From: an uncultured Lentisphaeria bacterium
Lineage (GTDB): Bacteria > Fidelibacterota > UBA8477 > JABMPR01
Assembly (NCBI GenBank): GCA_964469505.1
Contig: CAYXZO010000001.1
Span: forward strand, 37,402-101,401
Direction: 5' to 3'
DNA: 64,000 bases
In this document: one piece after another, positions 709-51,221 of the stretch
Position numbering within the stretch: the first letter of the stretch is position 1
How the letters are laid out: each line of letters starts with the position of its first letter
The notes under the pieces: generated by a model
What the model saw: only the letters and a program-made list of their open reading frames with translations
What the model was told of the DNA's origin: nothing
The model's database searches: none
Translations under genes and position numbers: made by a program

Positions 709-1173
709 TTACCTAAAATGAGCAAAAGCCTTGTTGGCTTCCGCCATCCGGTGAGTATCTTCACGTTTCTTAATGGCTCCGCCTTCATTATTAGCGGCCG
801 CAATCAGTTCGGCCGCTAATTTCTCCGCCATAGACCGCCCCGAACGGGCCTTGGCGTAGCTGATAATCCAGCGATAAGCAAGGGCATATCGTCGTTCTGG
901 CCGTACTTCCACCGGAACCTGGTAGGTGGCCCCACCGACACGCTTGGAACGCACCTCAATTACAGGAGCCACATTTTCCACCGCTTTCTTGAAGAATTCC
1001 AGGGGATCACTTTTGGTACGCTGCCTGATCCGTTCAAAAGCAGTGTAGACGATTCGTTCCGCTAAGCCCTTTTTGCCCCGGCGCATCACATAGTTGATGA
1101 ACTTGGCGACCATTACATCGTTGTAAACCGGATCCGGGGCGATTTTACGTTTTTCAGGTCGTTTTCTGCGCAT
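709..1173 (-). CDS. rpsG: 30S ribosomal protein S7
   Basis: 154-aa ORF with S7-like sequence (…[34 protein letters not shown]…). It lies 14 nt downstream of rpsL and 14 nt upstream of fusA. Confidence 0.95.
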
Positions 1174-9711: not shown

Positions 9712-9745
9712 CATAATCCCGCCCAGCAAGCTCGGCGGGATTATG
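9712..9745 (-). promoter_or_regulatory. Perfect 12-bp-stem hairpin (cataatcccgcc / ggcgggattatg, 10-nt loop) in the rplL-rpoB spacer. Candidate attenuator or RNase III processing site.
   Basis: The inverted repeat is read directly from the sequence. Its position matches the known rplL-rpoB attenuator region of other bacteria. No U-tract follows it. Confidence 0.4.
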
Positions 9746-19053: not shown

Positions 19054-19905
19054 TTAAGCTCCAGTGGTGACTTGCTTATGGCCTAGATACCAGATCAGTC
19101 CGGCTCCAATCAACATCAGGAAGCACAACACCTGGCCCATGGTGAAATAATTGAACAAAACAAAGCCCAACTGAGGGTCGGGTTGGCGGAAGAATTCAAT
19201 GAAGAATCGTACGAAACCGTAGCCAAAAACATAAGCGCCGGACAGAAAGCCGGGGAAATAATTGCGTTTCCGCAGGTTCCACAGCACGACAAACAGAAAG
19301 ATGCCTTCGAAAAATGCTTCGTAAAGCTGAGACGGATGGCGCAACAATCCATCCCCTGCCAGGGGGAAGTACATCCCGATGGGAGCCGTGGTTACCCGCC
19401 CGTATAATTCTCCGTTGATGAAATTCCCCAAGCGGCCGAAGGTGTAGCCCAGCGGGATTGCCGGGACGAACAAATCAGTTAGCTCAAAAAAGCGCATCCC
19501 ACGTTTACGAACAAAAATAATCCAGGCAACGATGACCCCCAGCACGCCGCCATGGTAAGACATACCGGAAATACCCACAAAACGCCAGTGGCCGCCTATC
19601 TTCGCGAAAGGCATAATAATGCTCAGTGGATGACGCATGAATTCGGAGAAGCCGTAAAACAAAACGTATCCTAACCGGCCGCCAATTATCACTCCCAGCA
19701 CCGCATACATCACCGCGTCGCCCACAAATTCACGTGAATAGGGCAGTTTTTCCTGGGTGATTCGCCGACTAACCAACCAATACACCAGCGTAAAGGCCAC
19801 CAGATACATGGTACCATACCAGCGTAGTGGGAAATTTCCGATGGTGAATATCACCGGGTCCATATGGCTCGGTAAATGTTGCCACCAGTACTTGAAACTG
19901 TTCAT
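19054..19905 (-). CDS. lgt: Prolipoprotein diacylglyceryl transferase
   Basis: 283 aa with the Lgt signature region (…HWRFVGISGMSYHGGVLGVIVAWIIF…) and a conserved FGRLGNFINGELYGR block. Confidence 0.9.
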   Translation of the reverse strand: MNSFKYWWQHLPSHMDPVIFTIGNFPLRWYGTMYLVAFTLVYWLVSRRITQEKLPYSREFVGDAVMYAVLGVIIGGRLGYVLFYGFSEFMRHPLSIIMPFAKIGGHWRFVGISGMSYHGGVLGVIVAWIIFVRKRGMRFFELTDLFVPAIPLGYTFGRLGNFINGELYGRVTTAPIGMYFPLAGDGLLRHPSQLYEAFFEGIFLFVVLWNLRKRNYFPGFLSGAYVFGYGFVRFFIEFFRQPDPQLGFVLFNYFTMGQVLCFLMLIGAGLIWYLGHKQVTTGA

Positions 19906-19989
19906 ATGGGATGGGAAGTTATTTCACGAAAGGGTGGAACCAAGAATTTCTAATATCTGTGTTTCCTGGAATGCGTCACAACGCTGCCG

Positions 19990-20170
19990 CTTTTTGGTAC
20001 GCCAATTATGTAGCACGGCATGCCGTGCCCCTACGAATTAATTGTTATACCACCCAACGGGCGACCGGCCGGTCGGCTCTACCATCACATTCCCCCCCCG
20101 TGCGGCCCGGCCAAACGTTCGTTGTTATCATTCATCACCTGGTTTAAATTCACCACCGTAAATGTAAATC
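19990..20170 (+). pseudogene. Decayed partial copy of the adjacent RAYT gene (HxH-to-mid region), immediately 5' of the intact gene. Contains the REP-like palindrome (imperfect, 20060-20076) and a second 16-bp perfect palindrome, gcacggcatgccgtgc, at 20013-20028.
   Basis: About 105 bp (20059-20165) aligns at roughly 85-90% identity to 20459-20562 inside the RAYT CDS. Conceptual translation reads …ARHAVPLRINCYTTQRATGRSALPSHSPPVRPGQ…, mirroring intact MPNHIHGIVWIVDNVGATGRSPLPSHYPPRGPAK but frameshifted. Confidence 0.45.
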
Positions 20171-20173
20171 GTT

Positions 20174-20827
20174 ATGGGTGAATACGATTCTCACCGTCAC
20201 CACCGGCGGTCAATTCGCCTGAAGGGATACAATTACACCCACCCGGGGGCGTACTTTGTTACCATCTGCACATATGAACATAGCTGTTTGTTTGGCCGGG
20301 TAGTTGATGGAAAAATGCGGTTGAATGGATATGGTGAAATGGTGCGGGATGAATGGTTCCGGTCGGTAAATATCCGGTCGGAAATCGAATTATATCCCGA
20401 TGAATTCGTGGTCATGCCCAACCACATTCACGGCATTGTGTGGATTGTGGACAACGTAGGGGCGACCGGCCGGTCGCCCCTACCATCACATTACCCCCCG
20501 CGCGGCCCGGCCAAACATTCGTTGTCATCATTCATCGCCGGGTTTAAATCCGCCGTCACCAAACGCATCAACCGCCATCGCCATACCCCCGGTGGGGTCG
20601 TCTGGCAACGGAATTATTACGAACATATCATTCGCACCGAATTGGCCTTGAATGCCATCCGGCAATACATTCGGGACAACCCCCTGCGCTGGCATTTAGA
20701 TCAATATAACCCCAACGCCACGGGTAACGATCCAATGCCTGACCACCTGGGGCGCTTGACATCGGACAACAGGCATCCTTACACGAAAACACCGAACCTT
20801 TATCCAGGGGAAGAAACCATGCCGTGA
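20174..20827 (+). mobile_element. REP-associated tyrosine transposase (RAYT) / IS200-like Y1 HUH transposase
   Basis: 217 aa with YFVTICTYEH…, the HUH motif NHIHGIVW and C-terminal GGVVWQRNYYEHIIR carrying the catalytic Tyr, all typical of RAYT/IS200 TnpA. It is the only plus-strand gene here, between divergent host operons. Confidence 0.85.
20461..20478. repeat. Perfect 18-bp palindrome GGCGACCGGCCGGTCGCC (REP-like hairpin) located inside the RAYT coding sequence
   Basis: Read directly from the sequence. An imperfect copy lies at 20060-20076 upstream of the gene. Confidence 0.8.
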
Positions 20828-21070
20828 CCATCGGTAGGGAACACCGTACTGAACAGCTAAAAACTTCCTACATCTCAATAGCAAATCGTAACGGCATACT
20901 ACAAGCAACCGTGCCCCATAGAACGGGATCGCACGTTACACGTATCCGTGGTAGCATTTTTCTCAAAAAAAGAGGGAATAAAAACAAAACACGCCAAACC
21001 GTGGCGCGACAAAACAACAACCTTGTTGCCTCACCTGGCGGGAGCTATAACCCTAACCCTGCCCCTCGGT

Positions 21071-21643
21071 CTATTGATCAGATTTTTGTAAACCGTTTCC
21101 TGCTATCCGGACTATTCCCAGCGCAATGATCACCCCCAAAGCCCCCAGCGCCAGAATCCATTTGGTCGAAGCGTAAAGACTGGCTAACGGTACCACACCA
21201 GGGGACACCACCGGGTAGGTGTGAAGCAAATACAAATGGCAGGCATTCTCCAACATGTCCAGGGCCCCGGCCAGCAAAGGAACCGTTAGCAACCAACGGA
21301 ACCAGGGGCGACCATTCCATTGGAAAGGCCGGGCGGTTTTGTATAACCACGTGGTTAGTAACAACGCATACAGCGCCGCGTACAGGTAATCTAACCCCAG
21401 GGCCCACACCCATTGATGGCGCACCTCAGCTGGCAATTTCGCTAAAACCGCAGCGGCTCGCTCACCGGTGAAGGCGAATTGCAAATCCAGCACTCCCACC
21501 CCCAGTTGTCGCTGCAGTTGCCAGTCACCAAGGTAGAGATAGCCCATCACGGGAATAATCAAAATCCACAGGATCAGATAGGCCCATGGTCGCTCGTCGA
21601 ACCAGCGGGCTACTACCAGACCTAAATTCATTTGCCCCGCCAC
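21071..21643 (-). CDS. Hypothetical membrane protein (190 aa, about 5 TM)
   Basis: Hydrophobic ORF overlapping the stop of the upstream enoyl-CoA hydratase gene by 16 nt. No family was recognised. Confidence 0.55.
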   Translation of the reverse strand: MAGQMNLGLVVARWFDERPWAYLILWILIIPVMGYLYLGDWQLQRQLGVGVLDLQFAFTGERAAAVLAKLPAEVRHQWVWALGLDYLYAALYALLLTTWLYKTARPFQWNGRPWFRWLLTVPLLAGALDMLENACHLYLLHTYPVVSPGVVPLASLYASTKWILALGALGVIIALGIVRIAGNGLQKSDQ

Positions 21644-42986: not shown

Positions 42987-43139
42987 GGAATTAATATAGA
43001 CTTTCGCTAGTCACAGCCCAAGTTTACCAAATTCCACCTAAAATCACAGGCCCCGCTTGCAAGGGGCGGGGCCTGTTTTCTATTTGCACACAACCTCGGA
43101 GGAATTCGCTAGGAGCGAACCCTGCCTGAGCAGGAATTT

Positions 43140-50210: not shown

Positions 50211-51221
50211 CTATTGGTAGGGAACGAATCCGATTTTGCGGTAAACCTTACGCAGAGTGCGCCGGGCCAAGCTTTGAGCTTCAGCGGCACCCCGTTGGAG
50301 AATTTCCTCCAGATACTTTTTCTCGGAGCGTATTTCCCGATAGCGGGCCTGAAAAGGTTCCAAAACCGCCACCACCAGATCGGCTAATTCCCGCTTTAGA
50401 TCCGCATACCCCCGCCCCTGGAATTTTTCCACCACCTGGGACAATTCCTCCCGGGATAAAGCAGCGTAGATGTTGAGTAAATTAGCCAGCCCTGGTTTGT
50501 TCTCCGGATCGTAAACGACTTCCCGCCCAGAATCGGTGACCGCCCGTTTGATCTTCCGCCGCAACACATCGGGCGGGTCCAACAACGCCAGGTAATTGTT
50601 GGGGTTGGCGTCGGACTTGGACATTTTCTTAGTGGGATCCTGCAGACTCATGATACGAGCACCGGTGGGCGGAATGTAGGGCTCCGGGACTTTAAAAGTA
50701 GGGCCGTAACGGTGATTGAAACGCTGGGCCAGGTCCCTGGTAAGTTCCAGATGCTGTTTCTGGTCTTCACCCACCGGTACCAGATCGGTCTGATACAAGA
50801 GGATGTCAGCGGCCATCAGAACCGGGTAGGTATACAGCCCGGCGTTGATGTTCTCAGCATGGCGGCGAGCTTTATCCTTGAATTGGGTCATACGGTTCAA
50901 TTCGCCCATATGGGTAAAGCACCCTAAAACCCAGGCCAGTTCCGCATGTTGGGGGACGTGGGATTGGATGAAAATGATATTGCGTTCGGGATCGATCCCC
51001 GCCGCCAGGTATTGTGCAGCAAAGGAAAGACAGCGCTGCCTTAAAGCCGCGGGCTCCTGCTGAACCGTAATGGCATGCAGATCGACTACAATGAAGATGC
51101 CCAGATATTTATCCTGCAAAGCCACCCAATTGCGCATGGCCCCTACAAAATTGCCAATGGCCAGCTCACCGGAGGGCTGAATACCGGAAAGCAGAATAGG
51201 ACGTGATTCGGATGTGGTCAT
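50211..51221 (-). CDS. trpS: Tryptophanyl-tRNA synthetase
   Basis: 336 aa with …LSGIQPSGELAIGNFVGA… (HIGH-region variant) and …KMSKSDAN… KMSKS motif. Confidence 0.93.
   Translation of the reverse strand: MTTSESRPILLSGIQPSGELAIGNFVGAMRNWVALQDKYLGIFIVVDLHAITVQQEPAALRQRCLSFAAQYLAAGIDPERNIIFIQSHVPQHAELAWVLGCFTHMGELNRMTQFKDKARRHAENINAGLYTYPVLMAADILLYQTDLVPVGEDQKQHLELTRDLAQRFNHRYGPTFKVPEPYIPPTGARIMSLQDPTKKMSKSDANPNNYLALLDPPDVLRRKIKRAVTDSGREVVYDPENKPGLANLLNIYAALSREELSQVVEKFQGRGYADLKRELADLVVAVLEPFQARYREIRSEKKYLEEILQRGAAEAQSLARRTLRKVYRKIGFVPYQ

Follow-up and report, generated by a model that had tools for sequence, protein, structure and literature searches.

A TnpA_REP/RAYT gene with an in-frame REP and a decayed partial copy of itself upstream, in an uncultured member of the FCB group

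The window, a 64,000-nt stretch of DNA from an uncultured bacterium of the Fibrobacteres-Chlorobi-Bacteroidetes (FCB) group, carries an ordinary member of a known family, the domesticated REP-associated tyrosine transposases (RAYTs) whose genes contain their own palindromic repeat. Upstream of this gene lies a 96-nt block that, judged by its alignment, is a decayed partial self-copy of the RAYT gene. The reading preferred here, to which we give a probability of roughly 65%, is that the locus is a REPtron of subclass 2.4/group 4 and that the block, itself without function, was left behind when part of the gene was duplicated locally. The features on which the argument rests are as follows, in window coordinates.

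19054..19905, minus strand: lgt (prolipoprotein diacylglyceryl transferase; Pfam LGT, E 8.9e-70), divergent from the RAYT gene
19906..20173, no strand: lgt-RAYT spacer between the two start codons, 268 nt (from the sequence)
20010..20034, plus strand: second, degenerate REP GTAGCACGGCATGCCGTGCCCCTAC, its core the 16-bp perfect palindrome 20013-20028
20059..20154, plus strand: decayed partial copy of gene segment 20460-20554 (blastn, family HMM)
20174..20827, plus strand: intact TnpA_REP/RAYT gene, 217 aa (ORF list)
20254..20542, plus strand: central cassette of the RAYT gene, aa 28-123, including the HUH and the in-frame REP (alignment with contig L001)
20423-20431, plus strand: HUH motif of the RAYT gene, H84-I-H86
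20456..20483, plus strand: perfect 28-nt double-foot REP GTAGGGGCGACCGGCCGGTCGCCCCTAC (GTAGGGGC..GCCCCTAC) (palindrome search)
20603-20635, plus strand: GTAG-recognition block of the RAYT gene, W144 Q145 E150 H151 R154
20666-20668, plus strand: catalytic Tyr, Y165, with N169-P170 after it
21008-20990, minus strand: terminator-like hairpin after the 190-aa gene
21071..21643, minus strand: host membrane-protein gene, 190 aa, convergent with the RAYT gene and homologous to the 190-aa gene of the L091 cluster

The transposase gene and its in-frame REP

The original prediction placed a complete HUH/Tyr transposase gene of RAYT/IS200-like Y1 type at 20174-20827 on the plus strand, and this was correct. 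The ORF is intact and its product matches Pfam Y1_Tnp (E 7.9e-7, 29.7 bits with a cutoff of 23), the match covering the C-terminal half only. The choice between RAYT and IS200, which had been left open, can be sharpened to RAYT. NCBIfam REP_Tyr_transpos (NF047646) scores 57.8 bits under its 80-bit cutoff and the IS200 TnpA model NF033573 scores 17.1 bits under its cutoff of 55; both are below cutoff, the former being an equivalog model for another RAYT subgroup of which only the C-terminal motifs are matched. At least 7,986 homologs turn up in the protein collection, named at source ‘transposase’ or ‘REP element-mobilizing transposase RayT’ and distributed over the Planctomycetota, Chloroflexota, Bacteroidota, Armatimonadota, Acidobacteriota and other phyla. 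Ten residues are invariant across an alignment of 26 homologs, namely H84, H86, W144, Q145, E150, H151, R154, Y165, N169 and P170.

When this 26-homolog alignment was used as a profile against the PDB, a single match was returned, to the E. coli TnpA_REP (4ER8), and at E 0.11 it is marginal, so that a comparison of folds was needed. In the profile alignment the HUH pairs with the HMH of 4ER8, W-Q-x4-E-H-x2-R pairs at equal spacing with W94, Q95, E100, H101 and R104, and Y165-I-R-D-N169-P170 pairs with Y115..N119-P120, giving a Y-x3-NP signature. The AlphaFold2 model of the protein (pLDDT 71.5) has as its best PDB matches in Foldseek the ISDra2 TnpA (2xm3; E 2.5e-6) and 4er8 itself (E 2.7e-6; rmsd 4.1 Å over 157 columns). 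All 29 matches with E <= 0.001 are to the TnpA of ISDra2, IS608, IS200 and related Y1 transposases, and to 4er8. Y-x3-NP is the published Tyr signature of class 2 TnpA_REP, and the five paired residues are those with which the E. coli enzyme recognizes the GTAG foot (Quentin et al. 2018; PMC6006769). On the strength of this signature, of the recognition residues and of GTAG-footed palindromes at the locus, the sequence assigns the gene to the TnpA_REP/RAYT side of the HUH-Y1 enzymes rather than to IS200.

The comparison with the best-known relatives can then be drawn closely. With the E. coli enzyme, a member of subclass 2.2 (group 2), the window protein shares the HUH-Y1 fold and the three motifs in the same spacing; it differs in its marginal sequence similarity and in a C-terminal extension of ~45 aa. 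With the IS200/IS605 transposases of IS608 and ISDra2 it shares the catalytic fold and, by analogy, may share the logic of recognizing hairpins in single-stranded DNA. Unlike them, it reaches only ~17 bits with the NCBIfam IS200 model and has the class 2 Tyr motif, and its gene possesses neither subterminal left- and right-end hairpins nor multiple identical copies. Within the 64-kb window blastn detects no further copy of the gene; no terminal hairpins or target duplications were found bounding it, and no hairpin 3' of it on folding the DNA. A scan of the genome collection with the protein found just one locus, and that a distant one. The gene is apparently an intact, single-copy one whose predicted product is a HUH-Tyr single-strand DNA nuclease/transferase.

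The palindrome inside the gene has the layout GTAG-GGG...CCC-CTAC and is translated in frame as VGATGRSPL. It precedes the Tyr and occupies a disordered loop that links the HUH strand to the next helix. As single-stranded DNA it folds with -14.7 kcal/mol (z -5.8), and the protein segment to which it corresponds, residues 97-106, has a pLDDT < 50 in the AlphaFold2 model. The original prediction had noticed a ‘REP-like palindrome’ here without recognizing that it is a family-wide and published property. An in-frame REP within its own transposase gene is not new. The REPs of subclass 2.4 are described as ‘double foot’, with 5' GT[AG]G, 3' C[TC]AC and three basal G-C pairs in the stem, and as lying in frame in the gene between HuH and Y, where they are modelled as a peripheral loop (PMC6006769). 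This subclass is RAYT group 4 of Bertels et al. (2017), which is common in Cyanobacteria, Chlorobia and Caldilineae and whose flanking 16-mers are only modestly repeated. The REPs of E. coli, by comparison, have a single foot and bulged stems and flank the gene as REPINs (PMC6006769). GTAG REPs inside genes were known in a more general setting from Di Nocera et al. (2013).

The regularity of this in-frame REP across the class can be judged from 80 related metagenomic loci, of which 74 have an intact gene. The pattern GTAGGGGC-N8-16-GCCCCTAC occurs inside the gene at 49 of the 74; of these REPs all but one (48) are placed after HUH and before WQRNY, and the palindrome is perfect in 45. Their inner stems are of 31 different types, 26 of them palindromic, and thus the stem varies with compensating changes. 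A REP within 300 nt outside the gene accompanies 13 of the 74 intact genes, often of the same type as the internal one, and a REP 30-100 nt 5' of the start codon is frequent among the related loci. Elsewhere in the 64-kb window no further REP copies were found; an occurrence of GCCCCTAC at 51139 was considered as a REP and rejected. Tens of dispersed genomic copies with the GACCGGCCGGTC or CACGGCATGCCGTG core would indicate an active REP family, and none at all an orphan RAYT.

By the published descriptive features, rather than by the authors' profiles, the gene can be assigned to the type of TnpA_REP subclass 2.4/RAYT group 4. Its REP, long and double-footed (5' GTAG, 3' CTAC), has three G-C basal stem pairs and sits as an in-frame insert in a peripheral loop separating HuH from Tyr. 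These two motifs are 81 aa apart, the published median for the subclass being 88. The W, Q, E, H and R of the block that recognizes GTAG are all conserved, flanking repeats are few, and the taxonomic distribution is broad and patchy. The window departs from the published description in that its flanking REPs are decayed, one of them being joined to 72 nt of conserved coding sequence, in that its 64 kb contain no REP population, and in that two alleles with swapped cassettes coexist in its population. The REPs of Di Nocera et al. (2013) are likewise GTAG palindromes translated in frame in protein-coding genes, but those are scattered in unrelated genes, whereas the site seen here is fixed in the REP's own transposase family. 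With this locus a published RAYT class gains a representative from an uncultured FCB-group bacterium.

The 96-nt block upstream

The original prediction also described a degraded duplicate of the central part of the gene at 19990-20170, running from the HxH motif through the KRINR region. The duplicate is real and ~90% identical, but this extent is too wide and shrinks to 20059-20154. Pairwise alignment of the upstream segment with the gene is highly significant, blastn giving 90.1% identity over 91 nt (E 2.5e-29, searched against the 64-kb window) and showing no third copy of the block anywhere in the window. The direct repeat, 20059-20154 with 20460-20554, consists of two ungapped parts, 93% identical over 40 nt and 89% identical over 61 nt, in which the spacing is 401 and 400 nt, respectively. 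The 1-nt indel between them puts the two halves of the copy in different reading frames. The copy begins at the internal palindrome and extends through residues PRGPAK..SFIAGFKSA, so that its left limit is the foot of the REP and its right limit lies near the FKSA codons. Neither outward extension survives scrutiny. To the left of the palindrome, where ELIVIPPN would correspond to DEFVVMPNH and hence to HxH, 181 of 300 shuffles score as high and the family HMM sees nothing; to the right, after 20154, the pairing of VNVNRY with KRINRH is not significant against shuffles. The only stretch that the HMM recognizes in translations of the spacer is PPCGPAKRSLLSFITWFKFTT (profile positions 108-132), and the HxH motif therefore falls outside the copy, while the KRINR region is not significantly covered.

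The block is made up of a degenerate REP (20059-20082) and 72 nt derived from the codons for PSHYPPRGPAKHSLSSFIAGFKSA. That it includes the same palindrome as the gene was rightly noticed, but the palindrome is decayed: it has no 5' GTAG foot, substitutions at the base of the stem leave two mismatches, and as DNA it folds no better than shuffled sequence (z -0.9). In the coding part the copy still reads KRSL, the family consensus, against KHSL in the present gene, and is off consensus elsewhere, with ITWFKFT against the gene's IAGFKSA; both have thus changed since what would be an old duplication. Among all the family DNA collected the sole relative of the fragment is the resident, window-type allele, and for these 96 nt the description ‘decayed partial copy of itself’ is apt. 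The block is identical in eight assemblies or contigs from at least six samples and is, therefore, not an assembly artefact. It ends 19 nt before the RAYT start. An ORF of 53 codons that runs through it ends in ATGGGTGA and overlaps the RAYT start codon. The block is probably without function.

Further upstream stands the 16-bp perfect palindrome that had been reported as new. It exists, at 20013-20028, but is the core of a second, degenerate REP of the same superfamily, a subtype found at related loci: GTAGCACGGCATGCCGTGCCCCTAC equals the subtype GTAGGGGCACGGCATGCCGTGCCCCTAC minus the GGG of the left foot, intact GTAGGGGCACGGCATGCCGTGCCCCTAC occurs inside the RAYT genes of L048 and L050, and 26 nt of the REP at 20010-20034 recur exactly at the gene start in L079. 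Its DNA fold has a z of -2.7. Both degenerate REPs lie within 165 nt upstream of the RAYT gene. On the other side, neither shuffle-tested alignment nor the family HMM detects anything akin to the gene or the upstream spacer in 20828-21070. A candidate decayed REP at ~20885-20933, which shares the 9-mer CCGTGCCCC with the upstream REP, was rejected, as its fold (z -0.1) and its alignment are no better than those of shuffled sequence.

Two alleles and the origin of the block

On the preferred reading, a tandem duplication of ~20155-20554, or a 400-nt circle re-integrated to the same effect, would have doubled a unit comprising the 19-nt leader and codons 1-127. What survives of the copy would span the internal REP and the sequence up to where the next helix begins, the left copy having later lost its 5' part, the GTAG foot, the pairing of the stem and the reading frame. 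Against this simple form, a left copy of full length would run into lgt, and the model has to assume a later deletion of ~300 nt from it. The repeat period of 400-401 nt fits the partial tandem duplication that had been offered originally as one of two possible origins. That the copy is cut off on the left at the REP foot hints that the REP hairpin, or the enzyme acting on the hairpin, set this breakpoint.

Local duplication associated with the REP recurs in the family. The internal REP array has been copied to just outside the gene at L016, L043 and L080, and L008 and L009 have two tandem genes and a partial third copy. The extragenic copies at other loci consist of the hypervariable REP array only, conserved coding sequence having been copied at the window alone, and family support for the particular mechanism proposed here is accordingly limited. 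All the available strains share an identical fragment, so there is no variation from which constraint could be gauged. The partial self-copy is in itself a minor matter; it suggests that local duplications may have a breakpoint at such a REP inside the gene.

The more useful by-product of the comparison of strains, and the one lead worth following, is a polymorphism of the gene itself. Near-identical strains carry two RAYT alleles that differ by a swapped central cassette of ~290 bp. The second allele is that of L001 and L085 (JGI sample 3300023503) and of the independently assembled L086 (3300009408), all with flanks 99.5-99.9% identical to those of the window; the window-type allele is found also in L002 and L089. 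Between carriers of the two alleles the background differs by 0.04-0.7%, and between the cassettes there are 71 mismatches and 11 gaps. The L001-type cassette has its own REP core, GACGCATGCGTC, which encodes VGATHASPL. The left edge of the cassette is also where contig L088 stops, at exactly 20253, as would be expected from an assembly bubble; a further contig end falls at 20170. The window-type cassette is 72-81% identical to the nearest homologs, like its own N- and C-terminal parts, whereas the L001-type cassette is only 47-57% identical to the same homologs, from which it follows that the L001-type allele is the chimera and its cassette foreign. The best matches to a donor are 68-69% identical, a weak negative in a search that missed P0002 itself. 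If long reads confirm the two alleles, they would provide a natural system in which to ask whether RAYT specificity and REP sequence are swapped together.

This polymorphism offers an unlikely alternative origin for the upstream block. The central half of the gene may be replaced at times by homologous recombination with diverged alleles or paralogs, and in that case the block would derive from a cassette, displaced or incoming, part of which was joined illegitimately beside the gene. The two alleles do differ only within 20254-20542, in backgrounds that are 99.3-99.96% identical and in independent assemblies, and the right end of the fragment (~20554) falls ~12 nt from the right limit of the cassette (20542/20543). 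That last coincidence is explicable by the strong conservation of FKSAVT, and the left end lies at the REP instead of at the left boundary of the cassette. The fragment also differs by 10% from the window-type cassette and bears no relation to that of the L001 type. Being identical in strains with either allele, it predates the exchange that is observed and is not its product. A bolder form, in which the central half with its HUH strand, in-frame REP and helix start is an exchangeable specificity cassette and the upstream block a stored or left-over part of one, seems improbable to us; were it true, enzyme and carried REP would be re-matched as one module, a route of RAYT-REP co-evolution that the RAYT literature cited here does not describe. 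There is likewise little to recommend the repeated or nested insertion originally suggested as the other origin, in which a new mobile copy entered an older one and the block is the 5' remnant of the latter. The fragment adjoins the start of the intact gene and the tandem genes of L008 and L009 provide precedents; however, nothing resembling the 3' part of the gene remains downstream, the 64 kb hold no second copy, and no terminal hairpins or target duplications surround the gene. The resident gene, moreover, is the fragment's closest relative at a regular period of 400 nt, and RAYTs in the literature are mostly single-copy and unlike IS elements.

That the block is a functional element acting in cis, be it an operator for autoregulation of the RAYT, a piece of the RAYT or lgt promoter or a silent donor cassette for gene conversion, we consider very doubtful. 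Its position in the only spacer open to both promoters, the frequency with which related loci have a REP shortly before the start codon, and the small ORF that reaches over the RAYT start codon would all suit such a role. The REP of the block nevertheless no longer has the GTAG foot required for recognition by the E. coli enzyme (PMC6006769), with a hairpin only as stable as shuffled sequence; the spacer contains no match to a promoter consensus; the sequence of the fragment is found inside the gene in no allele; and the arrangement is absent from the 80 other loci. Chance similarity or an artefact of assembly would have nothing further in its favour than the metagenome-type nature of the assembly, and is effectively refuted by the blastn E-value and by the identity of the block in independent contigs and samples.

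The host gene cluster

The gene had been thought to sit alone between two convergent or divergent host operons. The flanks prove instead to be one co-directional cluster on the minus strand, conserved in a relative, L091 (GCA_964543125.1), whose Lgt is 69% identical, and the RAYT gene is antisense inside it. The co-directional order in L091 is AtuA, AtuA-ferredoxin, ECH, 190-aa protein, PAP2, lgt, ArsP, Ddl, CysS. The window keeps this order on its minus strand with the antisense RAYT in place of PAP2, of which no remnants were found in the window. By its position the block may bear on lgt expression, as the original prediction had it. In the spacer no match to a sigma-70 or a Bacteroidetes-type (TAnnTTTG) promoter was found, consensus scans being weak for a host of the FCB group.

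A closer relative, L090 (Lgt 86% identical), helps to place the edge of the insert. Blastn of the spacer against it gives no match at E 1e-5, and by eye only ~50 nt beside lgt can be aligned, so that roughly 19955-20173 belongs with the RAYT insert. The partial self-copy puts ~200 nt of foreign DNA into the stretch that separates lgt from the RAYT gene, upstream of the former.

Allelic replacement within the RAYT gene

The RAYT gene, encoding the TnpA_REP/RAYT transposase, occurs as two alleles among near-identical strains whose background divergence is only 0.04-0.7%. They are told apart by their central cassette, a swapped stretch of ~290 bp (window 20254-20542) in which both the HUH motif and the in-frame REP lie.

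Sites of the cassette polymorphism:
window 20254-20542
L001 6081-6354
L086
L085

On sequence comparison, the foreign cassette is that of the L001-type allele, because it is only 47-57% identical to the nearest homologs as against 72-81% for the window-type cassette. Two independent contigs, L088 and L087, both break within the RAYT locus. The L088 contig ends at window 20253, precisely at the cassette's left boundary, a position compatible with the presence of both alleles in that sample; L087 ends at window 20170, 4 nt short of the RAYT start codon.

The surroundings of the gene

In L091, a relative in which synteny is conserved, the place of the RAYT gene is occupied by a gene for a PAP2-family phosphatase.

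L091 3139-3900: PAP2-family phosphatase region, compared with window 19906-21070

No PAP2 remnant was detectable in window 19906-21070 by this comparison. A 53-codon ORF (window 20020-20181), probably fortuitous, runs across the decayed partial copy of the gene; its end, ATGGGTGA, overlaps the start codon of the RAYT gene.

Hairpins lie both near the gene and elsewhere in the window.

window 20990-21008, minus strand: terminator-like hairpin with T-run, 63 nt past the stop codon of the 190-aa membrane-protein gene
window 790-820, 9712-9745 and 43046-43076: three further perfect hairpins, stems 11-12 bp, loops 9-10 nt

If the hairpin at 20990-21008 works, antisense read-through into the RAYT gene would be halted and lgt would require its own promoter. 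The three further hairpins are unrelated to REP and may be terminators.

Tandem genes, arrays and inserts in homologs

Tandem pairs of complete RAYT genes are found in the related loci L008 (2983-4693) and L009 (515-2398), their internal REP cores differing (GACCGGCCGGTC versus AATTCATGAATT), and a third, partial copy follows each pair. In some homologous proteins (P0054, P0083 and P0118), tandem repeats such as VGATG and AGATDAT form long in-frame arrays resembling half-REP expansions, and arrays homologous to the internal ones recur just outside the gene (L016 889-1043, L043 2419-2541 and L080 3535-3636). P0003 and P0098 have a second in-frame insert resembling REP (..GVTSRSPL.. and ..ANGRSPL..; protein alignment A2, columns 305-322), located after the IIRD/ERA motif and immediately ahead of the catalytic Tyr helix.
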